Assembly: GCF_004376175.1 (NCBI RefSeq)
Contig: NZ_SNUY01000004.1
Coordinates: 9,789-41,788 of the forward strand
Source of the DNA: Halalkalibacterium halodurans
GTDB lineage: Bacteria; Bacillota; Bacilli; Bacillales; Bacillaceae_D
DNA: 32,000 bases
Direction of reading: 5' to 3'
Below the pieces are notes generated by a model. That model was not told the DNA's origin and did not search any database. It saw only the letters and a program-made list of their open reading frames with translations. Below are positions 2,915 to 25,126 of this stretch, piece after piece. The position numbers were made by a program, and so were the translations under genes. Each line of letters starts with the position of its first letter. Positions within the stretch are counted from its first letter, which is position 1.

Positions 2915-5752
2915 TTATCGAGTCAAAGTTTCTGTTACGATGCGTTCTTGTTCTTGTTTATGAATGATAGGGTCGCCTTCCGCTGGACTTGAGCGATACG
3001 TGCGGCCTTCGTAGCGAACATTGATTCCGTTAGGAGCAGCACGGCGAATTTTCGACTGAACAAACGGCCAAGCTCCCATATTTCGTGGTTCTTCTTGCGA
3101 CCAAACGATTTCCTTTACGTTCGGATAGCGGGCAAAGATTTCTTGTAGCGGCTCTTTCGGGAATGGATATAACTGTTCAACGCGAACGATGTGCACCCAA
3201 TCCCAATCTTTATCCGCCTCTTTTTCAATCCGATCTTGCAAATCAATGGCAATCTTTCCACTACAAAGAACAATCCGTTCTACCTTCTCATGGCTTTCCC
3301 CTAAATTTGGTTGCTCCAAAACGGTTTTAAATCTTCCTGTCGTCAGCTCTTCCACGGAAGAGGCAACCTTTTGGTTTCGCAACAAGCTTTTTGGCGTCAT
3401 CATTATGAGTGGGCGCACAGAATCTGTATTTAATATCGCTGCTTGGCGGCGAAGAATGTGGAAGTATTGCGCTGCTGACGTACAGTTTGCAATCGTCCAG
3501 TTATTCTCTGCTGCTAAGACGAGGAACCGCTCGAGCCTTGCACTTGAATGCTCAGGTCCTTGCCCTTCGTAGCCATGTGGAAGCAAGCAGACTAGACCTG
3601 ATTTTTGTCCCCATTTTGCTCGGCCGGCAGACACCCATTGGTCAAACATAACTTGGGCTCCGTTCGCAAAGTCGCCGAATTGAGCTTCCCAGAGTACGAG
3701 CGTCTCCGGAGCAAATACGTTATAGCCATATTCAAAGCCGACAATCGCCATTTCACTTAACGGGCTATTGTGGACCGCAAACGAGGCATTCGCATGACGG
3801 AATGATTGTAAAGGCGAGTGCACATCGTTTGTGCGAGAATCATGCAATACAAGGTGACGGTGGGCGAATGTTCCACGTTCAGAGTCTTGACCCGTCAAAC
3901 GAATTGGCGTGCCGTCATGTAAAATCGTCGCAAAAGCGAGAGTCTCAGCTAATGCCCAGTCGACCTTTCCATCACCATCAAAAACGTTCAGGCGCCGCTT
4001 TAAAATTTTCTCTAGCTTTGGATTCACCGAGAAGCTCTCTGGCCATTCGAGCAATTCATTATTGATCGCCTTTAACGTTTCACTCTGAACTCCTGTATCG
4101 AGTTTCGGAAGGCCATTCACCACTTCGACTGGAGGCGTATCTGGTAGATGTTCATCTGTGCGATTTCTTAACGTCTCCTCGTATACGCTTTGCAGTTTGT
4201 CTTGCACCTCATCATCAAGCTGCTTGACTGTTTGCTCGTCGATCAAACCTTTTTTAACTAGCTGCTTGCTATAAAGCTCGCGAACAGTCGGATGCTTGCG
4301 AATGATTTGATATACCCCAGGCTGTGTCACAGCCGGCTCATCCATTTCATTGTGTCCGAAGCGGCGATATCCAATTAAATCAATCAAGAAATCCTTCTTG
4401 AAGCGTTTCCGGTATTGGAAAGCAAGATGGACAGCTGCCAAACAGGCTTCCGGGTCATCGGCATTAACGTGTACAATCGGAATCTCAAACCCCTTGGCAG
4501 GATCACTCGAATATAGTGTTGAACGTGAATCGAATGTTTCTGTCGTAAACCCGATGTTGTTGTTCGCAATGATATGCAACGATCCACCTGTTTGATAACC
4601 GGTTAAGCGGCTAAGGTTCAATGTTTCTGTTACAACACCTTGACCAGGGAACGCGGCATCTCCATGAATTAAAATCGAGTAGGCTTTCATGATATCCTGC
4701 TCAGGAGCACCAGGTGATGTCCGATCCTCTTGGGCCGCTCGGGCGTACCCTTCAACGATTGGGCTTACGAACTCTAAGTGACTTGGGTTGTTCGCAAGCG
4801 TTAACCTTGCTTCGGCAGTATTTTCATCGCGAATTTGCCTGTCAGCTCCAAGGTGATATTTCACATCTCCCGTCCAGCCATAGTTAATTCCAATCGAGCC
4901 TTCCGATGGGAATAAATCTTTATTTAGCGAGTGTAAAAACTCAGCGAAAATCATTTCATATGGTTTGTTTAATACGTGTGCAAGGACATTCAAACGGCCG
5001 CGATGGGCCATGCCAATCATCACGTTTGTCGTTCCTTCATGAACAGCTTCTCGAACAACTTCATCTAGCATTGGCACTAAGGTATCTAAACCCTCGATCG
5101 AAAACCGTTTTTGTCCAACGAATGTCCGATGCAAAAACTTTTCGAATCCTTCTACATCAGTTAAGCGCTTAAGTAAGGATTTTCGTTGTTCAGTCGATAA
5201 GTTTGGTAAGTAGAGCCCAGATTCAATCATACGATTCAACCATTTGCGCTCTTCTTCATCGGTAACGTGTACAAATTCAAAAGCAATCGTCTTTGTATAA
5301 ACTTCTTTTAAATGATTGATCGCATCTAACCCATTCTTAACATGGGCAGGTGCATATGGACAGAGTAAGTCCACAGGTACGGAGCGAATGTCACTTTCTG
5401 TTAAGCCAAAACGATCCAAATCGAACATATCTTCCCTGCGCTGCTCTTTGAGAATTGGTTGAATATCCGCTGCTAAATGACCGAACGCACGAATATGATC
5501 AGCTAATTTCACTGCACCCACGAACTTCTTAATGACGTCTGGGTCAGTGATTGATGCTGCTGTAAACGTTGATTGCGTACGCTCTGGTGCTGTTGCCGGC
5601 GGTGGTCCCCATTTTTCAAATGCTTCTCTCAATTCATCATCGACCGCATTGGGATCCTTTTGGTACTCTTCATAAAGCTCTACTGCTACACCAAGGTTAG
5701 GACCATAAAATCCTTGCCAAGGCTCTTCCGACGTGTGCTCCTTGCTGGACAT
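2915..5752 (-). CDS. odhA: 2-oxoglutarate dehydrogenase E1 component
   Basis: A 945-aa ORF of the size and architecture of Bacillus OdhA (for example [39 protein letters not shown]). It lies 20 nt upstream of odhB on the same strand. Confidence 0.96.
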
Positions 5753-5801
5753 GAAAAAACCCCCTACTTTCTAGTCAGTCAAAAACTATCAAAGGTTTGT
5801 T

Positions 5802-5850
5802 TTATAACGCTTTCATCAAGTATTTTAACATGTTTGTCACATTTGCTCAA
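5802..5850 (-). promoter_or_regulatory. Putative sigma-A promoter of odhAB with an overlapping cre-like site
   Basis: Minus strand: TTGAGC (5850-5845), a 17-nt spacer, then TGtTAAAAT (extended -10, 5827-5822). Immediately downstream is ATGAAAGCGTTATAA (5816-5802), which fits WTGNAANCGNWNNCW with one mismatch at position 14. Confidence 0.45.
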
Positions 5851-6070
5851 AGGTAATCTGAATTTACGATTTTTCGCATAATTACGCGGGAAACTATTGG
5901 TCTATTAAGGTTTTTAAGTAGCAACGCGTTGCCGAATCAAGGCAAAACGACAAACTTAATTTAAGTCTTTAAATTCTGAAAATAAAGTCTTTTTTACTTC
6001 CTTTCATTTTCTTCCCTTGCATCCCTCTTCTTTTCATAGTATGGTGTGCTTAGTTTCAATGGGAAAGGTG

Positions 6071-6691
6071 ATGATGATGACCGCTACTGTAGACCAGCAA
6101 AACAACCAGATCCTCTCACCTCTTTGCTCAAACTGTCCAGAACCTTATTTCAAGAAAGCTCATCCAGATCTTCCGAATGCCGGTTGTTGTAGTTATAGCC
6201 CGACCTTTTCCTTATTCGAGCTATGGAAAATGGTTCAGAAAGATGAGCGCTTTGTCCGAAGGTTATTCGAACTCCCGACAGCTGAGGTGCTGGAAACAGA
6301 GGTAAAAGTACATGCCCACGTTCATGAAGGATACTCTGATCGTGATGACCTTTCCAGTCTTTCGCCGATTGAGCAAAGCGATTTAATTGAACGGTACTCT
6401 GTCTGTGTTTTTTTACGTAACGGCAAAGGCTGCATGCTGGATGCTAGCTTTAAAAATGCCGTTTGTCGCTCCTTCATCTGTCCTTCTGTTGAAGCGACCT
6501 TATCCAACGAATTACTACACGAGATCCAAGCTGCGATTCATGCCATTCAGCACGAAGCAAAGCAATTCCATACAACGTGTAAACAAGTTTTACAAGAGCT
6601 CGGGCTCTCCTTAAAAAAAGACCATGATGAAGTGATTCGATTTTTAAAACAATATTACCCAGAGCCAGACCTTCATGAAAAAAGGAGCTGA
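6071..6691 (+). CDS. Cysteine-cluster protein, possibly YkgJ/CxxCxxCC-type zinc or iron chelating family
   Basis: Track ORF 6017..6691 starts at an RBS-less TTG. GGAAAGGTG precedes three in-frame ATGs at 6071-6079. The protein has C-x2-C...GCC-x-Y near the N-terminus (CSNCPEPYFKKAHPDLPNAGCCSY) and further Cys (CVFL, GKGCML, CRSFICP). The family call is from memory of the motif only. Confidence 0.55.
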   Translation: MMMTATVDQQNNQILSPLCSNCPEPYFKKAHPDLPNAGCCSYSPTFSLFELWKMVQKDERFVRRLFELPTAEVLETEVKVHAHVHEGYSDRDDLSSLSPIEQSDLIERYSVCVFLRNGKGCMLDASFKNAVCRSFICPSVEATLSNELLHEIQAAIHAIQHEAKQFHTTCKQVLQELGLSLKKDHDEVIRFLKQYYPEPDLHEKRS

Positions 6692-6707
6692 TCTAGGCTC
6701 CTTTTTT
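6678..6707. terminator. Bidirectional terminator between the Cys-rich gene and ku
   Basis: aaaaaaggagc / gctcctttttt form a hairpin with an A-run on one side and a T-run on the other. It overlaps the TGA at 6689-6691 and lies 11 nt from the ku stop. Confidence 0.7.
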
Positions 6708-6717
6708 ACTACGTATA

Positions 6718-7560
6718 TTACGCATTTTTCTTCGTTTTGGCGTTTGTTCGCTTGCGTGGCGTTTTCTTTGCCCCTGCTTTTTTTGTTTTATCGATCGACG
6801 CTTGGAGCGCCTCCATCAAGTCGGTTACATTAGAAGCTGCTGGTTCTTTCTCCTTCGCTGTTACTGTCTGTTTTCCTGCCTTTTTGTTTTCAATCATTTC
6901 CATCAGTGCTTGTCGGTAGTCATCCTCATACTTATCAGGGTCAAACGTTGTCGTCAGTTGATCAATAAGCAAAAGGGCTGTATCGACTTCCTTTTTCGTT
7001 ACGTCTACCTTCTCAGGTACATTCGGCACTTGATCTACGGCTCTCACTTCATCGGGAAAATGGATCGTTTCCATAAGAAGCGTATTTTTGTATACACGAA
7101 TAACAGCCAGATGCTCTTTGGCACGAATGATGATTTTTGCAACACCGATTTTTTCCGACTCCGCTAGGGCTTCTCGTAATAACGTATAGGCTTTGCCCCC
7201 GCCATCTCCTGGAGACATGTAATAGCTCTTATCAAAGTAGATCGGGTCTATTTCCTGTAGTTTGACAAAGTCAATGATTTCTACCGCCTTATCTTCCTGC
7301 TCTTTTTTTAAAGAGGCAAGCTCCTCCTCATCAAGCTCAACGAACTTATTTTTCGCGTATTCATAAGCTTTCACAATATCATTTGGCTCCACTTCAGCAT
7401 CACAGTTGGGGCAAACCTTTAAATAATTAATCGGGGTCTTACATTCTTTGTGAAGCTGTCTTAAACGAACATCTTTATTTTCTGTTGCAGCATGCAATTT
7501 GATGGGGATATTCACAAGGCCAAAACTGATCGTTCCCTTCCACATCGTGTGAATCGTCAT
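6718..7560 (-). CDS. ku: Ku protein (non-homologous end joining)
   Basis: MTIHTMWKGTISFGLVNIPIKLHAATE is the canonical bacterial Ku N-terminus, and the C-terminal tail is Lys-rich. I trim the track ORF (to 7644) to the ATG at 7558-7560, which has GAAGGAAAGAAGGTG just upstream. Confidence 0.93.
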   Translation of the reverse strand: MTIHTMWKGTISFGLVNIPIKLHAATENKDVRLRQLHKECKTPINYLKVCPNCDAEVEPNDIVKAYEYAKNKFVELDEEELASLKKEQEDKAVEIIDFVKLQEIDPIYFDKSYYMSPGDGGGKAYTLLREALAESEKIGVAKIIIRAKEHLAVIRVYKNTLLMETIHFPDEVRAVDQVPNVPEKVDVTKKEVDTALLLIDQLTTTFDPDKYEDDYRQALMEMIENKKAGKQTVTAKEKEPAASNVTDLMEALQASIDKTKKAGAKKTPRKRTNAKTKKNA

Positions 7561-7702
7561 CACCTTCTTTCCTTCTTCCCTAGCCTTCATAATGTGTGAT
7601 GAAACCGGATTGATTATGTAACGGAAGTTTTTCTGAAACAGCATGTATCGGCCTCATTAAAAAATAAAAAACGGGTATTCGGATTTCATGGTGGAAAAGG
7701 GC

Positions 7703-9034
7703 TTATAAATCACCCTTCTCCAAATTCTTAATAAGTGTGGAAAAATCGACACCAAAGTTGTCTGTAATGTCGTGATCATTCACTTCATACCAATTGAAAG
7801 TATCGTATAACATAGCTTTATTGAAAGCACTTGAATTAAATCGTGGCTTACGCTTTTTATGGAGCTTCTCATTGAAAAGGATTTTGGCTCGTAAGGCATC
7901 AAACGAGTAACCTCTACCCATTCGCTCTACCTGCCTAATAATGCTGTTAATTGACTCCGTATAAGCATTAGTGAGCCTTTTATCAAAGTAGTTGAATATT
8001 TCGACATGCCAGTTGTCTACGGCTCTCACGAGGTCTTTATATGCGTCTTTAGAGTTGCTGGACATACAACGGTGTCTCCATTGACTATAACGAAGATGAC
8101 CTTCATCTGGATCAGGAGTATCCCATATCCAGTAAAACTCTTCTTTGAGTTCATAGGCTTCTTTTAAAGCAGGAAGATTACCTAACCAAGTATCTAAGAG
8201 GAATGATTCACGTTCATTTAGATCGTGTTTACGCTTTAGAAGGATAAACCTTTCACGCATAAGGGTACGTCTTTCTTTTTGGCTCATATGGGCTTTCAAA
8301 GACTTTCTGACGTTATCTAAGGCTTGATTAGCCATTCTAACTACATGAAACTTATCTACGACAACTTTAGCGTGTGGAAGGATAGTGTTCACTGCGTCTT
8401 TGTAGGGCTTCCACATATCCATTGTGACGTACTCAATGTAAGTCCTGTCACTGATTTCTGAAAGACGTTGGATGACTGTTTCCTTGTTACGGTTAGGCTT
8501 GATGTCATAAATAGTCCTGCGTTCAATATTAGTCAATACAAGCCGAGGTCTACGGATAATATGTATCTCGTCTATCCCAAGCCACTTAGGAGTTTCAAAC
8601 TGGTATTCACGTTCTTTGAGTGCCACATAGTCCTTAAAAACGTTCCTAATGGTTTTCTCGTCAACACCAACGCTTTCTGCGACTTCTACAAAGGTCTTAG
8701 ACATGGATTGCTCTTGAATGGACTTTAAAAGCCTTTTGGTCATACTACGCTTTTCATCTACAGATATTAGGCGTTCCCAGAAGGTAGATCCGCATTCACG
8801 ACACTTGTATCGTCTACGGTTCAATTGTAAGCCCACTCGCTTTAAACGAATGGGCAAATCCATAATTAGTTGATTTCTTGAACTGTGTTTGTACAACTTG
8901 TCAAAACCACATTCAGGACAACGTTCAGGTGGTCCGACTGCTTCAACTTTAAACATCATATCGGTTTCATTTTCTTGTGGCGGTTCTATTGTTTTAATGT
9001 ATGGTAGGGATAATAAGTCTGACATATTATTCAT
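7703..9034 (-). CDS. ISL3-family transposase
   Basis: 443 aa with an N-terminal double Cys-pair zinc ribbon (CPECG...CRECG) followed by the long DDE region (GIDEIH..., VTMDMWKPY, DKFHVV, NAYTESINS) that I associate with ISL3 transposases. The stop lies only 9 nt from the inverted-repeat arm at 7679-7694. Confidence 0.88.
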   Translation of the reverse strand: MNNMSDLLSLPYIKTIEPPQENETDMMFKVEAVGPPERCPECGFDKLYKHSSRNQLIMDLPIRLKRVGLQLNRRRYKCRECGSTFWERLISVDEKRSMTKRLLKSIQEQSMSKTFVEVAESVGVDEKTIRNVFKDYVALKEREYQFETPKWLGIDEIHIIRRPRLVLTNIERRTIYDIKPNRNKETVIQRLSEISDRTYIEYVTMDMWKPYKDAVNTILPHAKVVVDKFHVVRMANQALDNVRKSLKAHMSQKERRTLMRERFILLKRKHDLNERESFLLDTWLGNLPALKEAYELKEEFYWIWDTPDPDEGHLRYSQWRHRCMSSNSKDAYKDLVRAVDNWHVEIFNYFDKRLTNAYTESINSIIRQVERMGRGYSFDALRAKILFNEKLHKKRKPRFNSSAFNKAMLYDTFNWYEVNDHDITDNFGVDFSTLIKNLEKGDL

Positions 9035-9184
9035 CCTTTATTACTCTGCGGTGTTAAGGTATCAATTATAGATTTGATGTCGAAATCATCAGTGTTAAAT
9101 TATTTTTGTGACCACAAATGCACTTAGAAAATCCCTTAAAGCATTAGCTGGTTCACTTGAATAGGGAGTTGTAAAAAAGTTCCC

Positions 9185-10825
9185 TTAGCCTGCACAACAA
9201 GATAATTTCGAAATATCTTTATCGAACGTAAGTGCAGCTAATTTTAGCCCTTCAGCCATTGTTAAATATGGTGCTAGGGTTTCTGTTAAATCTTCTATCG
9301 TTAAGCCAAATTTAACAGCTAATGATGCTGCATAGATGACATCTCCTGCATTCTCAGATACAATATGAACCCCTAATACTTTTAGTGTTTCTGCATCTGC
9401 TACTAGTTTAAATACACCGGTTGTTTCACGGTTTACAATTGCTCTTGGAACAGCATCTAAAGGTAATACAGATGTCTTCACATCATACCCTTTCTCTTTT
9501 GCTTGTTCTTCTGTTAAACCAACCGTTGCAACCGTCGGATTCGTAAACGTAACAGCAGGAACTACCGATAAATCTATTTTTTTGTTTAATCCACCAATAG
9601 CATTATCAGTAATAATTCCACCTTCATAGGCTGCTACATATACAAATTGTGGTCCTAAAGTCACATCTCCTGCTGCATAAATCTTTTCATTACTTGTTTG
9701 ACCAAAATCATTGATCAGGATTTCATTATTTTTTCCAGTTTCAACACCTGCTGCACTTAAATTTAAAGAATCCGTATTTGGTTTTCTTCCAGTGGCAACA
9801 AGTAACTGATCTGATTCAATGACTTCTCTACTGCCATTTACTGTTACGTAAACCCTTTTTATCTCTCCACTTTGTTCAACACGCTCAAAAGTTGCCCCTT
9901 TGACAAGGTTTATACCCTGTTCAATTAACGCTTTTTCAACTGACTCTGAAATCTCAGGATCATACTCCTTTAAAAGTCGCTCACTTCTTTGCATAAGCGT
10001 TATTTCTGAACCTAAATGATGAAATAGTTGTCCAAGCTCCATTCCAATGTATCCTGAACCAATTACAGTTAATCGTTTTGGTATTTTCTTTAACTCAAGA
10101 AGTGTTGTACTAGTTAAATAGTCCATTTTTTCAAGTCCTGAAATTTGGGGCAACGAAGGCGATGCACCTGTTGCAATTAAAAAGCGTTTTGCAGATAACT
10201 TTGCCCCATTGACCTCAACCGTACTAGCATCAACGAATTTTGCTTCACCTTTAATTAAATCAAAATTATATTCATCAATTAAATCCATATATTTTTGATT
10301 CCGAAGTTCGCTCACCAATTTATCCTTTTGCGTGATTAAACTAGCTAAATCCACTTCTCCAGCGGATGTTTGTAAACCTATAAACGGATTGTCTTTTGAT
10401 AAATGATTGATTTCCCCTGCCCTAAGAAGAGTTTTTGACGGAACACAGCCAATATTCACACAGGTTCCCCCAACCGTTCCACGCTCAATCATTCCAACTT
10501 TTGCACCGTATTCTATAGCTTTAATTGCCGAAGAAAAGGCAGCAGCACCAGAACCAATAATAAGAAGGTCATAATTGTCTTCATTAATTAACGCCACGTT
10601 TTCTAGTGATGATACTTCTTCAATTTCTCCGGCTTGGTAATTTGCTTCATCAATCGCCTTTATTGCACTTTCAACCTCAATATCATCGGGCAGTTCAAAT
10701 ACTGCTTCACCACGACGATAACTAGACTCAATATTTTTAGCACCTATCTTTTCAAGTGCTGATTCTACGTGTTTTTCACAACTCGTACAAGTCATTCCTG
10801 AAATGTTTACCTTAAATTTATTCAT
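9185..10825 (-). CDS. merA: Mercuric reductase with a single N-terminal HMA (NmerA) domain
   Basis: GMTCTSC metal-binding motif, redox-active [21 protein letters not shown] Rossmann motifs and a C-terminal vicinal Cys pair (KLSCCAG). AAAGGAG lies 7 nt upstream of the ATG. Confidence 0.96.
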
Positions 10826-10853
10826 AAAAAAGCTCCTTTCGTTAATTAATCTC

Positions 10854-11246
10854 TCATGTTAATGTTTCTATTATTGGACACGAATGTAATTGCTTTTCAT
10901 CTGGACATCGTTGTTTTAAGTCGTCTAACATAGTTTCAATTCGTTTTAAATCCTCTATTTGTTTTTGCACTTCCTTTTGTTTTTTAGAAACAAATTCGAA
11001 CATATCTTGACAACGAACTTCATCTTTATCTACAACACCAAGTAATTTATAAATCTCGCTTAAAGAAAAACCAAGTTCCTGTATTCGTTTAATAAACCCA
11101 ACACGCTTAACGTCATCATATGAATATATCCGATAACCAGCTTCCGTTCGGTGAGGTTCTTGTAATAAATTTTTTCGCTCGTAATATCTGATCGTTTCTT
11201 TATTAACTCCACATTTATCTGCAAACTCACTAATGCGATAAATCAT
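10854..11246 (-). CDS. merR: Hg(II)-responsive MerR transcriptional regulator
   Basis: MerR-type wHTH ([21 protein letters not shown]) with Cys at residues 79, 114 and 123. These are the three Hg-ligand positions I remember for Gram-positive MerR. It is the first gene of the operon, as in Gram-positive mer loci. Confidence 0.93.
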
Positions 11247-11493: not shown

Positions 11494-13329
11494 GTGAAAC
11501 CAATGCTTTTACAGACGACGACCGATTTACCGACAGGCGATAACTGGCGCTATGAAGTGAAGTACGATGGGTTTCGTACGATCCTCTTTTGGACAAAGGA
11601 GACGATTCGCCTTGAGAGCAGAAATGAACGACTTTTGACCGATCAGTTTCCTGAAATACACGATTTTTGCCAACGAATTTCCAATAAAGTGGAAGCCTGG
11701 CTCCCTATAACGATTGATGGTGAGCTTGTCCATCTTGTTAGCCCGTACCGAGCCCACTTTGCCCCGATTCAGACGCGATCGTTTATGCGTAAGCACGAAA
11801 CGATTGCAGCTAGTAGCATTAAGACACCTGCTACTTTATTGGCGTTTGACATCCTTGAACTAAAAGGAAAAACGCTTGTAGACTTACCGTATGATGAACG
11901 AAAAAAACAACTTAAGGCCCTCCTAAAGGCGATCGATGTTCCGTTAGAACCAACGATCCAATCGAATGCGTGCTTGCAAATGATCCCAGCACAAACCGAT
12001 GGTCAAGCCCTTTGGCAAGCCGTAGAGCTCCATCACGGGGAAGGAGTCGTCGCTAAGGATAGGTTCTCCGATTGGACAGAAGGAAAACGCACAAATCGCT
12101 GGTTAAAAAAGAAGAATTTTCGACAGGTGACCGTTTTTTTAACGGCCTATGATCCTGTGAACGGCTATTTTCATTTTGCTGTCTATCGGGATGGAACTAG
12201 CCTAGAGGTTGGAAATGTCACCCACGGTTTTGAGGATCACGAACGAGAAACACTCATTGCTTTTATGAAACAAAATGGAATGAAAAAAGGGAAAAGATAT
12301 GTCCTTGAACCGTCCGTTTGCTTTGATGTAGATTGCATCGATTTTGATGGGAAACATTTGCGCGAACCGATGTTCCATCGATTCAGACTCGATGTCAAAC
12401 CTGCACAATGCACGTGGAAATCGCTGCAAAGACAGCTAGCCCCGCTGCCTCCACAAGTTGAGATAACTCATCCAGATAAGCCGCTTTGGCCGAGACAAAT
12501 GATTCAAAAGATCGATTATCTTTACTATTTGCAGGAGGTTGCGCCTGCGATGTTACCTTTTTTAAAAGATCGACCATTGACCGTCATCCGTTACCCTCAC
12601 GGTGTACGAAGCAACACAGAGCGCGAGGCATTCTATCAAAAGAACTGCCCCGATTATGCCCCGTCGTTTGTTAAAACGGTTCGTTTAGACGAAATCCGTT
12701 ATATTGTATGCAATGATATTCAAACATTAGTTTGGCTCGGAAACCAGCTTGCACTTGAATTTCATATCCCTTATCACCCCGTTCCTTACACAAAGCCGAG
12801 TGAGATTGTTTTTGACTTAGACCCACCATCAATTAGTCAGTTTTCACTTGCTGTTAAGGCGGCTCAACTAATGAAAAACATGTTCGATGCCCTTAAATTA
12901 CAATCATTTGTGAAAACATCGGGAGGAAAAGGGTTACAGCTCTACTTGCCACTCCCAGACAACACGTTCACCTATGACGATACTCGATTATTTTCGAAAA
13001 CGGTTTGCGAGTTGCTTTGCAGCCAATTCCCTGAAGATTTCACGACCGAACGATTAAAAAAACACCGAGGACAGCGGCTCTATTTAGATTACTTACAGCA
13101 CGATGAAGGAAAAACGATCGTCGCCCCCTTTTCTCCCCGAGGCAATGAAGGAGGATTTATCGCGACCCCTTTACGTTGGGAAGAAGTGACTAACACCTTA
13201 TCTCCCGATCAATTTCCGATGAAAGCTGTCCTAGAGCGGTACCGAAACGGCATTCAGCCTTTTGCAACCTTTGCCGAGGCAAAGAAAACTCAGCCTTTTG
13301 CCGACGTTTTAAAAAAATTCAAACGTTAA
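11494..13329 (+). CDS. ligD: ATP-dependent DNA ligase D (ligase domain + primase-polymerase domain)
   Basis: N-terminal adenylation motif EVKYDGFR. The C-terminal half has the LigD PolDom pattern (VFDLDPP, KTSGGKGLQLYLPL, YLDYLQ). No phosphoesterase domain, as in Bacillus YkoU. GTG start with AGGTGA 7 nt upstream; ATG at 11503 is an alternative. Confidence 0.93.
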   Translation: MKPMLLQTTTDLPTGDNWRYEVKYDGFRTILFWTKETIRLESRNERLLTDQFPEIHDFCQRISNKVEAWLPITIDGELVHLVSPYRAHFAPIQTRSFMRKHETIAASSIKTPATLLAFDILELKGKTLVDLPYDERKKQLKALLKAIDVPLEPTIQSNACLQMIPAQTDGQALWQAVELHHGEGVVAKDRFSDWTEGKRTNRWLKKKNFRQVTVFLTAYDPVNGYFHFAVYRDGTSLEVGNVTHGFEDHERETLIAFMKQNGMKKGKRYVLEPSVCFDVDCIDFDGKHLREPMFHRFRLDVKPAQCTWKSLQRQLAPLPPQVEITHPDKPLWPRQMIQKIDYLYYLQEVAPAMLPFLKDRPLTVIRYPHGVRSNTEREAFYQKNCPDYAPSFVKTVRLDEIRYIVCNDIQTLVWLGNQLALEFHIPYHPVPYTKPSEIVFDLDPPSISQFSLAVKAAQLMKNMFDALKLQSFVKTSGGKGLQLYLPLPDNTFTYDDTRLFSKTVCELLCSQFPEDFTTERLKKHRGQRLYLDYLQHDEGKTIVAPFSPRGNEGGFIATPLRWEEVTNTLSPDQFPMKAVLERYRNGIQPFATFAEAKKTQPFADVLKKFKR

Positions 13330-13361
13330 TCGCTCGCAAAATGTTTCATCATGCGAGCGAT
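13329..13361 (+). terminator. Terminator of ligD
   Basis: atcgctcgca / tgcgagcgat form a perfect 10-bp stem that starts on the last base of the ligD stop codon. It is followed by ttatt. Confidence 0.65.
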
Positions 13362-13564
13362 TATTAAGTTTACATAATGAAATTATGGTTTATTAATTTT
13401 AACAGGAACATTCGTTCTACATCTTTTGCTGTATGATGTCCAAGACGAATTTCGTAAGCAGCCTCGTTCTTGCTGACGATGAGCGAAAGAAAAAAACTTA
13501 ATACACTAGCATTGTAACGATGAGTTCACAGCTCACAGTCCTTACAATGAAAGGTGGATAAACG

Positions 13565-14299
13565 ATGAATGATACAAAAGTAGTGATGATAACTGGAGCA
13601 TCAAAAGGGCTAGGAAAAGCATTAGCGCTCACATTTGCGAGAAACCATTGGTCCTTAGCCTTGTGTGCAAGAAATGAGCAGGCGCTAGAAGCTGTTAAAC
13701 AAGAGGCGTTAGAATCCGGAGCTGAATCGGTTCTCGCCATCCAAGCAGATGGTGCAGTAGAAAAGGATATGGATCGATTCGTCTCTTTAACGGAATCAAC
13801 GTTCGGACACATTGACGTACTCATTGTCAATGCCTCCATTTTCGGCCCTGGGCCGGCATGGCTTCTCGATTATGATCTCTCTTCATTCCAAGACGTTTTG
13901 CTGACGAATGTCCTCCATTCGTTTATGATTACGAAACGTGTGCTACCAGGCATGCTTCAACGAAAGAAAGGAACCATTTTACATGTCACATCAGAGGCAG
14001 GAAAAACAGGCTTTGCCGAATGGGGGGCTTACGGGATTAGCAAATTTGCGCTGGAAGGCTTAGCTGAGACATGGGCTAATGAGCTAACGGAGACGGATAT
14101 TGCTCTTAGCTGGATCGACCCTGGTGAAATGGATACAGACATGCACGCCATCGCTGTTCCTGATTGCGATTACCCTCTTGCAAAACCAGAAGATGTAGCA
14201 AATGTATTTTTCGCGATTGCTAGCCGAAAGCGAGAGGAAGTTCACGGCAAACGTTTTGAGGCGCAGGCATTGATGACAAAAGGAGGGGTAAGCTTATGA
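13565..14299 (+). CDS. Short-chain dehydrogenase/reductase (SDR) family oxidoreductase
   Basis: TGASKGLGKA cofactor motif, NAS, and catalytic YGISK (YxxxK). AAAGGTGGA lies upstream of the ATG. Confidence 0.9.
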   Translation: MNDTKVVMITGASKGLGKALALTFARNHWSLALCARNEQALEAVKQEALESGAESVLAIQADGAVEKDMDRFVSLTESTFGHIDVLIVNASIFGPGPAWLLDYDLSSFQDVLLTNVLHSFMITKRVLPGMLQRKKGTILHVTSEAGKTGFAEWGAYGISKFALEGLAETWANELTETDIALSWIDPGEMDTDMHAIAVPDCDYPLAKPEDVANVFFAIASRKREEVHGKRFEAQALMTKGGVSL

Positions 14300-15306
14300 A
14301 TCACGCACCGACGTTCTCCATCCCTGATCATCTAAACGCAAGTGAACCGATTGAACGGCAAGGGAAACAGCGAAGTGATGTGAGAATGCTCGTTCTCGAT
14401 CGAGACTCTCACCGAACATTCCATGAGCCTTTTACGGCAATTGCGAACTATTTACAACAGGGGGATATCCTCGTCTTAAATCGAAGCCGTTCGATCCCTT
14501 CCCGATTAATCGGGTCGCTACACGGGGAAACCATTGAGCTCCGGCTGTCCCATGAACGGAGGGACGGCCTATGGGATGGATTAATTCTTAGTTCTAGTGA
14601 GCTACACGCCGGTGATAGGATCTTTTTATCTTCAAGTCTTTCGGCCACACTTATAGAGAAAGATGAACATACCCCATTATGGAGGGTGGCGTTTAGTAAA
14701 AGAGGCGCTCAACTACTTGAATATGTTTATCGTTATGGAGAGCCGATCGGCTACGAGTATATTAAGAGCTCCCTTTCGATCCAAGACTATCAAACCGTCT
14801 ACAGCTCCGCTCCTGGTTCTGTGGAAATGTGCTCTGCGGGAAGACCGTTTACGTGGCAGCTGCTAGCGCGCTTAAAACAAAAAGGTGTCCGCATCGCCTT
14901 TTTAGAGCTTCATACTGGGTTAAGTTATTATGAAAACGACGTGTGGCCAGATCCTGCACACCATCCTGAACATTACCATATCCCGAAGGAAACAATCGAG
15001 GAGCTAAAGAAAGGAAAACGTATAATTGCCGTCGGAACAACGGTCGTCCGAGCATTAGAAACATACGCCCAAACAAATCGTTCACAAGGAACAACGACGC
15101 TATCCATTGATGCTGGCTATGAACTGCAGTTAGCAACTGGCCTATTGACAGGATTTCATGAGCCTCAGGCTAGCCACCTTCATATGCTAGCAGCCTTCGT
15201 CCAAGAACAAGAGCTATTTCGCGTGTACGAACAGGCGATCAGGCAAGGCTATCAATGGCATGAATTTGTGGACGTGAACTTCATTCTCCCGCTAGGAGAT
15301 ATGTGA
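14296..15306 (+). CDS. QueA-family (S-adenosylmethionine:tRNA ribosyltransferase-isomerase-like) protein, probable paralog
   Basis: Collinear with QueA as I remember it: GDILVLNRSRSIPSRL (compare GDLLVFNNTRVIPARL), YQTVYSSAPGSVEMCSAGRPF (compare [21 protein letters not shown]), IAVGTTVVRALE (compare AVGTTSVRSLE), TGFHEPQASHLHMLAAF (compare TNFHLPESTLIMLVSAF). The start overlaps the SDR stop (ATGA). Confidence 0.8.
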   Translation: MNHAPTFSIPDHLNASEPIERQGKQRSDVRMLVLDRDSHRTFHEPFTAIANYLQQGDILVLNRSRSIPSRLIGSLHGETIELRLSHERRDGLWDGLILSSSELHAGDRIFLSSSLSATLIEKDEHTPLWRVAFSKRGAQLLEYVYRYGEPIGYEYIKSSLSIQDYQTVYSSAPGSVEMCSAGRPFTWQLLARLKQKGVRIAFLELHTGLSYYENDVWPDPAHHPEHYHIPKETIEELKKGKRIIAVGTTVVRALETYAQTNRSQGTTTLSIDAGYELQLATGLLTGFHEPQASHLHMLAAFVQEQELFRVYEQAIRQGYQWHEFVDVNFILPLGDM

Positions 15307-15653
15307 TGAACTGGGATCATGTCGGAATGGAAACAAGTCGCCTTGATGAGACACTGAAGTTTTATGAAACGTTCTTCAAGTTCGAAGAAGAACAAGCGAT
15401 TACATTTCAAGAGGAGAACATCCTCTTCATCCGCCGAGGAGTCATCCGACTCGAATTAATTGAAAATCAGCAAGCCTCTCCCCCTTCTCAACAGCTTCAT
15501 ATATGCTGGCGAGTCCCTTCATTGAAAAAGGAAATGATTCGGCTTCAGAAGCTCGGCCTTTTACCAGTTGAGGGTCCCTTCGCCTTCGACCTGTTTAAAA
15601 CGGTTTTCTACAAAGGCCCTAACAATGAAATCATTGGACTGATTCAAAGGTGA
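15303..15653 (+). CDS. VOC (glyoxalase/bleomycin-resistance/dioxygenase) superfamily protein
   Basis: About 115 aa. The WDHVGMETSRLDETLKFYETFF N-terminus and later RLELIE / H-x-C segments fit the paired beta-alpha-beta-beta-beta VOC fold. The start (GTG 15303 or ATG 15306) overlaps the QueA-like stop. Confidence 0.7.
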   Translation: MMNWDHVGMETSRLDETLKFYETFFKFEEEQAITFQEENILFIRRGVIRLELIENQQASPPSQQLHICWRVPSLKKEMIRLQKLGLLPVEGPFAFDLFKTVFYKGPNNEIIGLIQR

Positions 15654-15672
15654 CACTCTGTCTCACCTTTGA
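15644..15672. terminator. Hairpin between convergent VOC and response-regulator genes
   Basis: aaaggtga (15646-15653) pairs with tcaccttt (15663-15670). It overlaps the VOC stop and lies 9 nt from the regulator stop. Confidence 0.5.
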
Positions 15673-15678
15673 ATCAGG

Positions 15679-16332
15679 TTAAAACCGATCATACTCAGAG
15701 ATTCCATACTTTATCGCAAAAAGGGCTGCCTGCGTCCGATCATGAACATCCAACTTCCAAAAAATATTTAATACATGGGTTTTCACCGTCTTTTCAGAAA
15801 TGTGCAACTCGCTCGCAATTTCTTTGTTACTTTGCCCTTTGGCCAATTCTCGTAATACGTCTTTTTCTCGATTCGTTAAGTCTCTTAACCGCTTCTCTTC
15901 CTCAGACTCGTCCCCGTTCATCCTCGTCAGCACATGCTTGGTCACTTTCGGGTGTAAACGGCTCTCTCCTGAGCAAACGGCACGAATCGTTTCTGCAAGC
16001 ATTTCCGGGTCTACTTCCTTCAATTGATAACCATTTGCCCCTGCTTGCAGTGCAGGAATCACCGACTCTCTTTCTGCACTACTTGATAAAACGACAACAT
16101 GTACAGTTGGCCATTTTTGTTTAATTTTCTTCGTCGCTTCTATCCCATTTATTCCTGGCATGATGACGTCCATTAATACAATGTCAGGTTGGACTTTTTC
16201 AACTAAGGTAAGGGCTGCCTCACCATCTTCAGCTTCCCCTACAATGGTAAAATCGTGATAGGTTTCTAAAAAGTAGATCAACCCTTTGCGAACGACATGA
16301 TGATCATCCACTACTGCAATCCGAATACTCAT
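15679..16332 (-). CDS. NarL/LuxR-family two-component response regulator
   Basis: Receiver domain (VVDDHHVV...DIVLMDVIMPGINGIE...VVVLSS) plus a C-terminal LuxR HTH (LTNREKDVLRELAKGQSNKEIASELHISEKTVKTH). Confidence 0.93.
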   Translation of the reverse strand: MSIRIAVVDDHHVVRKGLIYFLETYHDFTIVGEAEDGEAALTLVEKVQPDIVLMDVIMPGINGIEATKKIKQKWPTVHVVVLSSSAERESVIPALQAGANGYQLKEVDPEMLAETIRAVCSGESRLHPKVTKHVLTRMNGDESEEEKRLRDLTNREKDVLRELAKGQSNKEIASELHISEKTVKTHVLNIFWKLDVHDRTQAALFAIKYGISEYDRF

Positions 16333-17765
16333 CCTTGCTCCTCCTCATCAAACGGGACATGAATGGAAATAACCGTTCCCTCACCCGGTTGAGAGCGAAC
16401 ATGTATCATTCCCCCTATTTGCTTCGCCCTCTCTTTCATATGTTTCATTCCGAATCCTTCTGCATTGGTTTCCTTTATTCCACAGCCATCATCCTGAATT
16501 GAAATAATCCCCGTCCCTCGATTCTTGTACATGTGTACGACAACGTTCGAAGGATTGGCATGCTTTTTACAGTTGTTTAACGCCTCTTGAACAATCGGAA
16601 ATAGCGCAGCCTCTTTTGCCTTTGACCACCGGATTACTTCACAGCTTGAGAAAGAAACCGGCAGTTGAATTTGACCTGCATACGTTTCAATTGCGAAAAT
16701 CAACCCTTTTTCAAGCCCGAGTGGTCGCAATTGCCAAATGAGATGACGCATCTCCACCATTGCTTCGGAAGAAAGCTGTTGAATCATCGCAAGCGGTTTT
16801 TTTAAAGTATCGTCCTTCGTCCGTTGCTCCCCTCCTTTAGCTGTTAGCCCGATCGAAAAAAGGAGTTGGTTAACCGAATCATGTAAATCTTGGGCGAGCC
16901 GTTGCCGCTCTTGGGAGATTAATACGTCCGTTGCCACCTCTTGTAATCGCTCTCTTTCGATGAATAATGCAAGATGATTCGCAATTCGCTCAATCAATTT
17001 TGCTTCTATCTTTGAAAATGATGGCGCGTATACCGTTAGACAAATCTTTGTATCACCCATCTGCTCATTAGTGGTTCGTGCTTTTTCATCGCTTTTCCCA
17101 TAAAAGATCGTAGCCCCATTTGTTAGCGTAAGTGATAGTCCAGACCACGAGAAGTAATCGAGAAGGGATTGGGAGGTCTCCCTTTCAATTCCCTTTCTTC
17201 TACTTTTATTTACGTAGGTAACCCATTGATTAAAATTTTCAAACAGATTCGCCCGGAGCTTTTCTTCTTCTAACAATTGAATCCGATGAACTGCCGCTCC
17301 CATTTGATAAGCAATCACTTCAAGAATCTCTAATTCTTCTTCTTGAAAATGAAATTTTTCAGAGGCCGCTACGTTCATCAAACCGTATGTTCGATCCCCA
17401 GCACGAATCGGGATCGTCGCATGGTGAGTAATTTGCGCGGTCGATCCCCAGTTGTTGAGCTTAGCCCGTTCAAGACGACGACACTCTAAAATATTGACCG
17501 CCCCTTGTAGCTTGCCATGGTGTAAACGATCGACACACCAACAGCTTCCTTCGCACATGGGCCGAAACTGATCGTGAACGAGTCCTTCCGGTAAGTTTGA
17601 ATGGGCCACTAAATGTTGCTTCTCTCCTTCCACCATAAAGATCCAGCCAGTGTCAAGCCTCGTTAATTCTAACGTTTTCTCAAGCACACGCTGGAACATT
17701 CTTTGGAGATTTTCACCTTCGTGTAAGGTTTTCGAAAGTTCTTTTAAGATGTGAATCGATCTCAT
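16329..17765 (-). CDS. Cytoplasmic GAF-domain sensor histidine kinase (HisKA_3 / NarL-partner type)
   Basis: No TM segments are evident. N-terminal GAF-like region, H-box DLHDSVNQLLFS, and HATPase_c motifs (NNCKKHA, DDGCGI, GFGMKHMKERA). A 4-nt overlap with the response-regulator gene. Confidence 0.9.
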   Translation of the reverse strand: MRSIHILKELSKTLHEGENLQRMFQRVLEKTLELTRLDTGWIFMVEGEKQHLVAHSNLPEGLVHDQFRPMCEGSCWCVDRLHHGKLQGAVNILECRRLERAKLNNWGSTAQITHHATIPIRAGDRTYGLMNVAASEKFHFQEEELEILEVIAYQMGAAVHRIQLLEEEKLRANLFENFNQWVTYVNKSRRKGIERETSQSLLDYFSWSGLSLTLTNGATIFYGKSDEKARTTNEQMGDTKICLTVYAPSFSKIEAKLIERIANHLALFIERERLQEVATDVLISQERQRLAQDLHDSVNQLLFSIGLTAKGGEQRTKDDTLKKPLAMIQQLSSEAMVEMRHLIWQLRPLGLEKGLIFAIETYAGQIQLPVSFSSCEVIRWSKAKEAALFPIVQEALNNCKKHANPSNVVVHMYKNRGTGIISIQDDGCGIKETNAEGFGMKHMKERAKQIGGMIHVRSQPGEGTVISIHVPFDEEEQG

Positions 17766-17904
17766 CCTCTGTCTCCATTTCAGCTTTTACATTCATTGTA
17801 AAAGGACACTCCCCCAGTTGTAAACTTTCTGGCCCATAAACGTCTTCACCTTTTTCCTATGTTCCCCATACCATACAGTAGCTTTGAATTGGAGGAAGGC
17901 GTTT

Positions 17905-23033: not shown

Positions 23034-24092
23034 TTAAGCTAGGATGACTTCTTGAACATTGATTAATGTTTTTGTTGTAAACGATTGTTTGCATGCGTAA
23101 CCAAGCTTCGTAGACTCCACACCATCCTTTACGGTCACATCCGGCTTCCGTCCTTCAAGAATACAGCGAATGAACTCCTCGGCTTCCGCTCGGTATGCTT
23201 GCTCGAAACGCTCAATAAAACCTTGAACACATTCATGAATCACCCCGTGCTCATTCATCACGATCGCTTGATTCCGCTCGGGAATGGAACCAATTCGAAT
23301 CGTCCCTTTCGTTCCGATGATTTCGGTTTCAATATGGTACCCATGGGCACAGTTTCGACCAGCTACAAACAAACCGATCGCCTGATTGTCAAAGCGAACC
23401 ATTGCTGCCCCAGTTTCAGCATCGCCAAGCTCAGCAAATTCAGGCCTTGAATAACTTCCACCGATCGCCCACGCTTCAGACGCCTCAGCCCCTAAATACC
23501 AGCGAGCTAGGTCAAAATCGTGGATCGACATATCTAAAAACAAACCACCGCTGTCATTCGCTTTTGCGAAAGCAAGAAAACCGTCAATTTGGCTTGCCGG
23601 ATCAAGTCCGTAGCATCTGATCATCACTGGCTCTCCTATCTCTCCACGGTTGATTTTTTCTTTTGCTGCTTGATACGATGGATCATAACGGCGCATGAAG
23701 CCAAGCATAAACACTTGGTCTTCGTGGCGATTGACCGCGTTCTCCACTTCCCTAACTTCAGCCAAATGAAGGCCTAAAGGTTTTTCGCAAAAAACGTGGA
23801 AGCCTTTTTCGAGCCCTTTCTTGATTTGTTCACAGTGAAAACCTGACGGTGAGGCAATGAAAATGGCATCTAATTCTTCGTTTGCTAGCATCTCCTCGTA
23901 GCTCGTATAACCGTAAGGCACGCCCCACCGTTCCCTTGCTTGTTTTACCTCGGCTTCAACGACGCTACATACAGCAGTGAGCTCGCAACGAGGAATGCGA
24001 AATGCTAGATTGTCCCCATGCTGCTGCCCGAGCCGTCCGAGTCCGACCAAGCCTACCTTGACACTTTTCAACTCTCCTAGCCCCTTTCTCAC
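23034..24092 (-). CDS. Gfo/Idh/MocA-family NAD(P)-dependent oxidoreductase
   Basis: VGLVGLGRLG Rossmann motif and the EKP motif (FCEKPLG). The start is uncertain: GTG 24092 overlaps the upstream stop, or TTG 24071 has AAAGGGG 9 nt upstream. Confidence 0.88.
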   Translation of the reverse strand: MRKGLGELKSVKVGLVGLGRLGQQHGDNLAFRIPRCELTAVCSVVEAEVKQARERWGVPYGYTSYEEMLANEELDAIFIASPSGFHCEQIKKGLEKGFHVFCEKPLGLHLAEVREVENAVNRHEDQVFMLGFMRRYDPSYQAAKEKINRGEIGEPVMIRCYGLDPASQIDGFLAFAKANDSGGLFLDMSIHDFDLARWYLGAEASEAWAIGGSYSRPEFAELGDAETGAAMVRFDNQAIGLFVAGRNCAHGYHIETEIIGTKGTIRIGSIPERNQAIVMNEHGVIHECVQGFIERFEQAYRAEAEEFIRCILEGRKPDVTVKDGVESTKLGYACKQSFTTKTLINVQEVILA

Positions 24093-25126
24093 TCCGATTT
24101 AGCGTGTTCCTCCAATACTTCTACATCCTTCACAGCAACTGGACGATTTTCTAACCAAGACTGCTTTGCCGCCAAGGCGAGCAATTCTGCTTTGTATCCA
24201 TCTTCTCCTGTGCAGCGCAACGGCTGATCCTCTAAAATCGCTGTTGCAAACTCAGCTACCTCGTCTTTATACGCTTGCTCGTAACGATCAAGGAAGAAGT
24301 GCTTTGGCAAATCGAGTGTCACTGTATCTTTTGTGCTAATTTGTACATTTGTTTTACGCTCATTATCCGCAGATACAGAGCCGAGGGAACCGAACACTTC
24401 GACGCGTTGATCGTAGCCATAGGCCGCTTGTCGACTATTATCGATGACCGCAATCGCACCATTTTCTAACATTAGCGTAATGATCGCTGTGTCCACATCC
24501 CCGACTTCTCCGATCCGAGAGTCCACAAGATTAGCCGCTTTGACGGATACTTCTGTCACCTCGCTCCCTGATAAGTAACGAACCATATCAAAATCATGGA
24601 TCGTCATATCCATAAACATTCCACCTGATCGTTCCACATAAGAAAGGGGCGGAGCTTCTGGATCACGAGAGCTAACACGTATAATGTGCGGCGCACCGAT
24701 CGCTCCTGCTTGCACGCACTCTTGCACACGGCGAAAGTGTTTGTCATAGCGACGGTTAAACCCTACTTGAAACTTCACTCCTGCCTCGTTCACGATATTT
24801 AAGGCACCCTTCGTTTCCGTTACATGAAAACTGATTGGCTTCTCGCAAAAAATATGTTTGCCCGCTAAAGCAGCGGCCTTGATGAAAGCGGCATGGGTAT
24901 CTGTTGACGAGCAAATAAAAATCGCATCAATGTCCCGATTGGAAAAAAGCTCGTCAGGGTTCGTCGTCATTATCTCGACAGAACGCTCAATCTCCGTCCC
25001 TTTTAAATGATCCAACTGTACATCTGATACCGCTTTCAACTCCATGTAAGGTGACGAGATAATATTCCTTGCATGAAGCTGTCCAATTCGCCCTGCGCCA
25101 ATTAATCCAATGTTTACTGTTTTCAT
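24089..25126 (-). CDS. Gfo/Idh/MocA-family oxidoreductase, inositol 2-dehydrogenase-like
   Basis: I trim the track ORF (to 25381) to ATG 25124-25126 (MKTVNIGLIGAGRIGQLH). AAGAGGGGAA lies upstream, and the ATG overlaps the symporter stop as ATGA. FCEKPIS and GFNRRYD motifs. The 85-aa extension in the track overlaps the symporter gene and is not credible. Confidence 0.9.
   Translation of the reverse strand: MKTVNIGLIGAGRIGQLHARNIISSPYMELKAVSDVQLDHLKGTEIERSVEIMTTNPDELFSNRDIDAIFICSSTDTHAAFIKAAALAGKHIFCEKPISFHVTETKGALNIVNEAGVKFQVGFNRRYDKHFRRVQECVQAGAIGAPHIIRVSSRDPEAPPLSYVERSGGMFMDMTIHDFDMVRYLSGSEVTEVSVKAANLVDSRIGEVGDVDTAIITLMLENGAIAVIDNSRQAAYGYDQRVEVFGSLGSVSADNERKTNVQISTKDTVTLDLPKHFFLDRYEQAYKDEVAEFATAILEDQPLRCTGEDGYKAELLALAAKQSWLENRPVAVKDVEVLEEHAKSE

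Follow-up and report, generated by a model that had tools for sequence, protein, structure and literature searches.

To our knowledge, no enzyme other than QueA takes a ribosyl group from S-adenosylmethionine (SAM), and QueA is not known to do anything but form epoxyqueuosine in tRNA. A review published in 2022 described the enzyme as unique and gave it a single role (PMC9092360). A 32,000-nt stretch of the Halalkalibacterium halodurans genome (contig NZ_SNUY01000004.1, positions 9,789 to 41,788; hereafter, the window) contains a QueA-like gene as the middle member of a three-gene operon, which follows a gene encoding a short-chain dehydrogenase/reductase (SDR) and precedes a gene encoding a vicinal oxygen chelate (VOC) protein. 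The QueA-like protein and its relatives resemble QueA (EC 2.4.99.17; PDB 1VKY, 1YY3, and 1WDI) in the full-length Pfam domain, two-domain fold, similar length, and 43 invariant positions, but they are only 27–42% identical to the canonical enzymes, score below the equivalog cut-offs, and carry switched motifs. Unlike queA, their genes are not located beside tgt, are nearly always found downstream of an SDR gene on the same strand, and occur in lineages reported to be queuosine-free. They form a clade of the QueA family that has acquired an obligatory SDR partner and its own regulation and that probably acts on a different substrate.

The other components of the locus also have described relatives. 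The SDR shares the NADP-type arginine after strand 2 and the N-S-Y-K tetrad with the YciK-family SDRs (E. coli YciK; PDB 3F1K, 3IAH, and 3I1J), but it scores below the cut-off of that family and has WG-Y and DPGxMxTxMH elements of its own; we know of no substrate assigned to YciK. The VOC protein carries the H-E-H-E ligands of methylmalonyl-CoA epimerase, glyoxalase I, and FosB and is, like them, as large as one paired-module subunit, whereas its own family is confined to the Bacillaceae-type version of the operon. The two-component system encoded next to the operon resembles AirSR (YhcSR) of Staphylococcus aureus and YhcYZ of B. subtilis in the N-terminal C-x-C-x17-C arrangement of the kinase and in its NarL/LuxR-type regulator. 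The spacing after the first cysteine is x7 in AirSR, but it is x3 in the window kinase and x3–x7 in its relatives, and AirSR has no reported link with an SDR/QueA-like operon. Two heptamers separated by 2 nt (7-2-7) are the site arrangement of the NarL family, and the palindrome found upstream of the operon likewise consists of two 7-nt half-sites (TAC...T and A...GTA) with a 2-nt spacer, although its inner bases differ from the NarL consensus.

The QueA-like protein and its separation from canonical QueA

The QueA-like protein, which is identical (100%) to a public H. halodurans protein, was aligned over residues 6–330 to positions 5–322 of the 322-position Queuosine_synth profile with a score far above the gathering score (267.7 versus 25 bits). 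It did not reach the cut-offs of the two NCBIfam models for the QueA equivalog, scoring 214.2 bits against 324 for NF001140 and 188.8 bits against 267.45 for TIGR00113, whereas the ruvAB-linked QueA of Neobacillus (locus L022) exceeded both (499 and 486.5 bits, respectively). The identity to a true QueA from Bacillaceae was 31%, and the three solved QueA structures were matched in sequence with E-values of 1e-41 to 1e-48. The AlphaFold2 (AF2) model of the protein (predicted local distance difference test score (pLDDT), 82.9; predicted template modeling score, 0.80) was used as a Foldseek query, and only 1vky (E = 3e-25), 1yy3, and 1wdi were retrieved at E ≤ 1e-3, with template modeling scores of 0.55–0.66. 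As the model matches only QueA structures, the fold is that of QueA, with two domains, one of them alpha/beta with an inserted beta-barrel. The closest relatives of the protein were 45–53% identical, the nearest being 53%; they carry the generic public name "S-adenosylmethionine:tRNA ribosyltransferase-isomerase", and the canonical proteins are named "tRNA preQ1(34)... QueA".

The paralogs were compared with a reference set of four canonical QueA sequences from three phyla (Thermotoga, Thermus, B. subtilis, and Neobacillus); a profile search for diverse canonical QueA proteins had yielded only proteins of the B. subtilis group and Neobacillus. In a neighbor-joining tree, the 84 paralogs and the four canonical sequences were separated without exception, and a hidden Markov model (HMM) of the paralogs outscored the canonical HMM by at least 98 bits for every one of the 84 paralogs. 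Charge and isoelectric point did not separate the paralogs from canonical QueA. The preliminary description of the window, which was made from its sequence alone, had assigned the middle gene to the QueA family on the basis of conserved blocks and had suspected a paralog outside any queuosine context. The Pfam match (PF02547) and the QueA fold bear out the former; the scores below both equivalog cut-offs, the separate clade in the phylogeny, and the lack of ruvAB, tgt, and queCDEF in the 32-kb window agree with the latter. As judged from these sequence comparisons, the middle gene is a QueA-family paralog belonging to a separate clade and is not the canonical queA.

The paralog and the true queA were found in one genome in Neobacillus, as loci L020 and L022 carry both. 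In Neobacillus niacini (L022, positions 4270–10835), the genes are arranged in the order of SDR, QueA-like, kinase, regulator, ruvA, ruvB, and a second, canonical QueA. In both loci, the module lies directly upstream of ruvA-ruvB-queA, with the paralog and the canonical queA approximately 4 kb apart on the same strand; the VOC gene is present in L020 and absent from L022. The coexistence was observed for these two Neobacillus loci. In H. halodurans itself, BH1226 may be the gene annotated as queA, and a literature search for BH1225–1227 gave no result.

Comparison of the two groups identified 43 positions that are invariant in both the paralogs and canonical QueA, including those in YQT, GS..AG, LH.G, VGTT..R.LE, H.P, and GD. 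Relative to the four canonical sequences, approximately 40 canonical invariants were lost in the paralogs, and 13 canonical-invariant positions carried another residue that was conserved in at least 90% of the paralogs. The canonical PLPPYIK is switched to P.RYE.I, and TNFHLP.S.L is switched to TG.HEP.ASHL. GSVEMPSAGR.F replaces the canonical GS. motif,.WHEFGD.N.I replaces another canonical motif (the clade is therefore called WHEFGD.N), and the canonical GTFRPV element is absent. Newly conserved polar residues in the clade consensus are R152, Y153, E177, R183, E289, H294, H322, and E323. These newly conserved Arg, Glu, and His residues are consistent with a catalytic scaffold that has been kept but may act on a different, more polar second substrate.

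Partner genes and distribution of the clade

A total of 185,579 species genomes were scanned for the peptide patterns WHEFGD[MIV]N and AVGTTVVRA, and the best 80 of at least 600 matches were kept. The loci were selected through the QueA-like protein alone, and 83 related loci were compared. Among the matches listed, the hosts of the clade were Bacillaceae, Symbiobacteriaceae, Chloroflexota, Cyanobacteria/Melainabacteria, Acidobacteriota, Verrucomicrobiota, Fibrobacterota, Deinococcota, many Actinomycetota, and one Nitrososphaera metagenome-assembled genome (MAG), and the loci sampled span approximately 10 phylum-level lineages. QueA homologs are considered bacterial. The SDR and QueA-like pair of locus L035 lies on a contig binned as a MAG of Nitrososphaera, an ammonia-oxidizing archaeon, and could reflect horizontal transfer or a binning error.

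In 81 of the 83 loci, the paralog gene was preceded on its own strand by a gene for an SDR homolog, and one of the two exceptions was truncated by a contig end. The SDR stop and the QueA-like start shared 4 nt in 40 of 80 loci and 1 nt in seven, and in 60 of the 80 the two genes either overlapped or were no more than 15 nt apart. Recurrence of the 4-nt overlap in half of these loci indicates that the overlap seen in the window is not due to chance. The SDR and the QueA-like protein are probably functionally coupled. None of the tgt, que, and dpd genes was a conserved neighbor of the dyad in the 83 loci. An apparent SDR–QueA-like fusion in a Solirubrobacterales MAG (L068) was rejected, as its contig is full of frameshifts. 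One stop-free frame (3591–6035) of L068 holds receiver, SDR, and QueA-like domains, and assembly errors are likely because the helix-turn-helix (HTH) region of the regulator is in another frame.

The VOC gene followed in 32 of the 83 loci, mostly in Bacillaceae but also in a Paenibacillaceae isolate, a Symbiobacteriaceae MAG, and a Bacillota MAG, and the triad recurred with differing flanking genes in several genera. Outside Bacillaceae, no third conserved gene was found in the 83 loci, and the downstream neighbors were heterogeneous. Co-conservation of all three genes, which the preliminary description had proposed as a check, therefore holds for Bacillaceae-type genomes and does not extend across phyla; since the VOC gene is present in only 32 loci, it is lineage-specific, and the dyad of SDR and QueA-like genes is the unit conserved across phyla.

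The SDR gave its best NCBIfam match to the YciK family (NF006509) without reaching the cut-off (159.8 versus 269 bits), and its PDB matches were 3i1j and the YciK structures. The window protein retains T10-G11..G15.G17 (TGxxxGxG), the NADP-type R36, and N89-A90 (NNAG); its catalytic tetrad (N115-S143-Y156-K160) is intact, and these motifs are conserved in the 78 partner SDRs. WG.Y and DPGxMxTxMH are invariant elements of the partner SDRs themselves. By these motifs, the protein is a classical NADP(H)-type SDR resembling YciK.

The preliminary description overlooked the most informative neighbors of the operon, which are the convergent regulator, the AirS-like GAF kinase, and the upstream operator. 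Clustering of the flanking open reading frames (ORFs) in the 83 loci showed that 33 loci encode a NarL/LuxR-type regulator and 29 encode a HisKA_3 kinase, and a direct search found homologs of the window regulator and kinase adjoining the dyad in approximately 35 loci. The two genes were placed downstream and co-oriented, upstream and co-oriented, divergent, or convergent with respect to the dyad. The adjacency thus survives rearrangement across phyla, which argues for a functional link with the dyad. The best NCBIfam match of the regulator was NarL, below the cut-off.

The window kinase has a cysteine cluster (C-x3-C-x-C-x17-C) beginning at residue 71, and the [2Fe-2S] motif of S. aureus AirS is C-x7-C-x-C-x17-C (PMC4601167; PMC8774646). 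Of the 32 kinases encoded next to the dyad, 14 have a four-cysteine motif (from Bacillaceae, a Trueperaceae MAG, and a Bacillota MAG). A three-cysteine motif (C-x-C-x17-19-C) was seen in another six kinases, which come from an Evansella isolate, a Bacillota MAG, Chloroflexota, an Acidobacteria MAG, and an unclassified MAG. The hosts of GAF kinases with a cysteine motif belong to Bacillota, Chloroflexota, Acidobacteriota, and Deinococcota. By analogy with AirS, the GAF cysteine cluster may hold an iron–sulfur (Fe-S) center. The window kinase (478 aa) and a Litchfieldia kinase (481 aa) contain approximately 110 extra residues between GAF and HisKA_3 that match no Pfam domain, and this stretch is missing from the Neobacillus-type kinases (~370 aa; L008–L027 compared).

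The VOC protein scored just over the threshold of the Pfam Glyoxalase_4 model (27.7 versus 27 bits) and above that of Glyoxalase (24.2 versus 20.6 bits). Its candidate metal ligands H6, E51, and H66 were invariant in 30 homologs, and E109/E112 was conserved in 29 of the 30. When the family profile was compared with known structures, methylmalonyl-CoA epimerase (1e-11) and glyoxalase I (7e-11) were closer than FosB (1.5e-8). Fos models weakly matched 13–15 of 29 VOC members and did not match the window protein, whose sole curated NCBIfam match was far under the model cut-off. A word-index homolog search retrieved only a near-identical H. halodurans cluster, and a single-sequence AF2 model (pLDDT 46) was unusable for the fold. 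The protein thus appears to be a small metal-type glyoxalase/epimerase-like enzyme. The preliminary description had linked it to epoxide opening by Fos-type enzymes; such a role is possible but not specifically indicated because the epimerase and glyoxalase I are closer than FosB, and enolate- or isomerase-type chemistry appears to be at least as likely. A paper from 2011 drew attention to B. halodurans BH2212, an uncharacterized member of the VOC superfamily on the margin of the epimerase cluster (PMC3262844). The window VOC protein is probably BH2212, as suggested by the locus order inferred from ligD, and a literature search for locus tags BH2210–2214 returned only the mention of BH2212 in the clusterMaker paper.

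Upstream elements and gene layout

The features of the operon and its flanks are listed in Table 1. A position weight matrix (PWM) of the operator was built from the related loci. The operator family has the 18-nt consensus CTCAkmCwAAAGTTGTAG and is found upstream of the SDR gene in approximately 30 Bacillaceae-type loci in either orientation; in L011, it is a perfect palindrome (TACAACT-AA-AGTTGTA). In 1.69 Mb scanned, the PWM gave 52 matches, of which approximately 33 were located 100–154 nt upstream of an SDR start, and a strong match was also found just upstream of the kinase gene in L001. The candidate operator in Table 1 is the sole site in the window with a PWM score of at least 12. Through this site, the operon may be controlled by the neighboring regulator or by an orthologue of it from another genomic locus.

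Table 1. Positions of genes and sequence elements in the window
Feature	Position	Strand	Remarks
SDR gene, 244 aa	13565-14299	+	Pfam adh_short, 154 bits
QueA-like gene, 336 aa	14296-15306	+	Pfam PF02547 Queuosine_synth, 267.7 bits
VOC gene, 115 aa	15306-15653	+	Pfam Glyoxalase_4, 27.7 bits; GTG 15303 is an alternative start
NarL/LuxR-type response regulator gene, 217 aa	15679-16332	-	Pfam Response_reg and GerE
Sensor histidine kinase gene, 478 aa	16329-17765	-	Pfam GAF_2, HisKA_3, and HATPase_c
Candidate operator CTACATCTTTTGCTGTAT	13417-13434		Degenerate 7-2-7-type palindrome; PWM from related loci
Leader inverted repeat CATTGTAACGA / TCCTTACAATG	13510-13549	+	Hairpin in the 5' untranslated region
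Ribosome-binding site (RBS) AAAGGTGG	13550-13557	+	7 nt before the SDR ATG; predicted from sequence
Putative kinase-regulator promoter TTTACA-18 nt-TACAAT	17784-17824	-	Predicted from sequence; sigma-A-like
Inverted repeat, 17-nt arms	13327-13363		Directly 3' of the ligD stop codon
Inverted repeat, 18-nt arms, 94% complementarity	15639-15677		Includes the stop codon of the VOC gene and the terminal part of the convergent regulator gene

A perfect TACAACT half-site overlaps the -35 element of the putative promoter of the kinase gene, and the palindrome TTTTACAATGAATGTAAAAG upstream of this gene shares the octamer TTACAATG with an arm of the hairpin in the SDR leader. Between ligD and the SDR gene, no sigma-70 site with at least nine of 12 matches was detected in a scan of positions 13250–16400. 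TACAAT in the 3' arm of the hairpin was rejected as a -10 box, as it has no -35 partner and the RBS would drop from the transcript.

The leader repeat consists of CATTGTAA (13510–13517) and TTACAATG (13542–13549), which extend to 11-nt arms, and the outer 4-bp stem pairs part of the Shine–Dalgarno (SD) sequence. The predicted RNA fold has an energy of -16.1 kcal/mol (z = -1.9) and is modestly better than chance, since six of 200 shuffled sequences folded equally well. No Rfam 15 family was found in the window at the gathering thresholds, and the matches in the leader were at chance level (E ≥ 0.25). The sequence of the hairpin is not conserved, and in many orthologous leaders a pyrimidine stretch farther upstream pairs with the SD region. 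SD pairing had a mean probability of 0.68 in the orthologous leaders versus 0.57 in control genes of the same loci (p = 0.019, uncorrected for relatedness), and the probability was 0.54 in the window. Thus, the inverted repeat noted previously before the RBS is real, but with these values it is of uncertain significance as a functional element.

The three operon genes described previously were all recovered as ORFs with overlapping boundaries and were assigned by Pfam to three families. The ATG of the QueA-like gene lies inside the SDR stop (ATGA at 14296–14299), and the TGA of the QueA-like gene (15304–15306) is shared with both candidate VOC starts, GTG at 15303 and ATG at 15306; the latter is favored by alignment with 29 homologs and by the public annotation of 115 aa (P0241). 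The 18-nt-arm repeat, which no T-run follows, is likely a bidirectional transcript end of the VOC and regulator genes. The 17-nt-arm repeat is probably the ligD terminator and would form the upstream limit of the control region of the SDR operon. Among the PADLOC defense models, none matched the SDR, QueA-like, VOC, and kinase proteins, and the HTH region of the regulator weakly matched a CARF-associated model.

The upstream side of the window contains odhAB, ku, an ISL3 transposase gene, merA, merR, and ligD, and the downstream side contains the response regulator and histidine kinase genes followed by genes for an Rv2525c-like protein, a phosphotransferase system component, and sugar utilization. 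The non-homologous end joining genes ku (6718–7644, minus strand) and ligD (11494–13329, plus strand) are separated by the ISL3-family transposase gene (7703–9034), merA (9185–10825), and merR (10854–11246), which together look like a mobile mercury-resistance insertion. Further downstream, the ORFs of a GFO/IDH/MocA oxidoreductase (24089–25381, minus strand) and a sodium:solute symporter (25123–26664, minus strand) overlap by 259 nt; since the oxidoreductase domain begins only at residue 89, the true start is probably located further downstream.

Proposed function and alternative explanations

A functional reading has to accommodate the paralogy, the conserved SDR pairing, the two-component neighborhood, and the conserved upstream motif observed here. 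The reading we favor, to which we give a little less than an even chance, is that the dyad performs QueA-type SAM ribosyl transfer and isomerization on a non-tRNA acceptor with subsequent NADP(H)-dependent redox tailoring, with a VOC step in Bacillaceae and AirSR-like control in many lineages. The paralog would take SAM as the ribosyl donor, freeing adenine and methionine, and would transfer and isomerize the ribosyl carbons to a cyclopentane-type unit. The acceptor of this unit would not be preQ1-tRNA and would most likely be a small molecule. The SDR would oxidize or reduce the product of the paralog, or it would ready the acceptor, and in Bacillaceae the metal-dependent VOC enzyme would contribute an isomerization or ring-opening step. 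The NarL-type regulator would control the operon through the 7-2-7-like palindrome, and the GAF cysteine cluster of the AirS-like kinase, as an Fe-S center, would sense O2, oxidants, or nitric oxide. In this scheme, we infer that SAM is used, what kind of acceptor is modified, in which order the steps take place, that the kinase binds an Fe-S center, and that the regulator binds the operator.

QueA-like chemistry is plausible because only QueA structures match the model and the 43 invariants are kept, and a non-tRNA acceptor is supported by the switched motifs, the lack of conserved queuosine genes nearby, and the abundance of the clade in Actinomycetota, the phylum reported to hold most of the tgt-less species (PMC10570037). 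The same fold and shared invariants also favor a second nucleic-acid-modifying QueA that would act on preQ1-tRNA or another 7-deazaguanine in RNA or DNA and would form, together with the SDR, a stress-specific and Fe-S-independent route to queuosine or a derivative. The Neobacillus module lies directly upstream of ruvAB-queA, and the canonical pathway of Bacillaceae would supply preQ1-tRNA. QueG and QueH, which normally reduce epoxyqueuosine, are Fe-S enzymes (an established point, covered in part by PMC5699537), and a putative redox sensor of the Fe-S type is encoded next to the operon. Nevertheless, such a route is considered quite unlikely, as the canonical invariant motifs are systematically replaced, the clade is abundant in the mostly tgt-less Actinomycetota (PMC10570037) and is also present in the Nitrososphaera MAG, tgt, que, and dpd are not conserved neighbors, and PADLOC gave no match. 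The newly conserved residues E177, R183, E289, H294, H322, and E323 could instead form a new catalytic or metal site, and QueA chemistry may have been abandoned. The paralog would then bind another ribosyl or sulfonium compound, or would cleave SAM or an analog without an acceptor for detoxification or salvage, and the SDR would reduce the carbonyl product; judging from the published QueA mechanism, an SDR would fit the reduction of an aldehyde or ketone arising from ribose ring opening. This we regard as unlikely because most QueA-family invariants are kept and only QueA structures are matched, a fold without any other known activity, with QueA itself called a unique enzyme (PMC9092360).

Several points weigh against the favored reading or limit its reach. 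The clade is common in Actinomycetota among the matches listed, and the tgt status of its hosts is known from a phylum-level report, not for each genome. The actinomycete kinases align over the catalytic half only and do not have the GAF/cysteine region, so the link to a redox sensor is limited to part of the clade, and the spacing after the first cysteine in the window kinase (x3) is not that of AirS (x7). The window operator is degenerate, with a PWM score of 14.6 versus 22–29 elsewhere; the pattern TACANCNNNNGNTGTA has one match in the 32 kb against 0.35 expected by chance, and at least one match occurred in 30 of 100 shuffled sequences. We know of no QueA structure with bound SAM or tRNA in which the switched residues could be placed in the pocket. 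Finally, the H. halodurans protein departs from the clade at seven of 80 conserved positions (the median being two), with G325V, P179C, and R152G among the deviations. Glycine occupies position 325 in each of the other 83 paralogs and in the four canonical QueA proteins, and nearly all of these sequences have proline at position 179. Because of these seven deviations, the H. halodurans copy may work differently or poorly.

The deviations, including G325V and P179C, together with a nearest homolog at only 53% identity and the degenerate operator, would also be consistent with a decaying copy under relaxed constraint in an operon that is a relic of little or no function. However, the reading frame, both coupling overlaps, the RBS, the SDR tetrad, the VOC ligands, and the two-component system have all been retained, and other paralogs, such as those of L044 (eight deviations) and L080 (nine), depart from the clade nearly as much or more, making decay very unlikely. 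Accidental juxtaposition of three unrelated enzymes, in favor of which one can say only that SDR and VOC proteins belong to generic families, has a negligible chance of being correct and is effectively refuted by the SDR homologs in 81 of the 83 loci that were found via the QueA-like protein alone and by the recurrence of the triad amid different flanking genes.

A more specific form of the favored reading is that the dyad is a SAM pathway making a free or small-molecule-bound cyclopentane compound, such as a cyclopentenone- or reductone-type redox metabolite or a signal, in aerobic soil lineages of approximately ten phyla, often under an Fe-S redox two-component switch; this version is possible but doubtful. 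The preliminary description had mentioned no characterized pathway with the SDR–QueA-like–VOC gene set, and our literature search likewise found none, nor did it find a paper describing the QueA paralog clade.

The public label of the paralogs, "S-adenosylmethionine:tRNA ribosyltransferase-isomerase", means that genome-based predictions of queuosine capacity can be wrong. The nearly constant pairing of this sister clade with an SDR, its coexistence with queA in at least one genus, its abundance in Actinomycetota, and its frequent link to a redox-type sensor point to a second biological use of QueA chemistry. The system is a defined one of two or three enzymes, all small and soluble, whose likely inputs are SAM and NADPH. 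If the dyad is indeed a SAM pathway to a cyclopentane compound of the kind described above, a second type of reaction would be known for the QueA fold, and SAM would have a fate not seen before.

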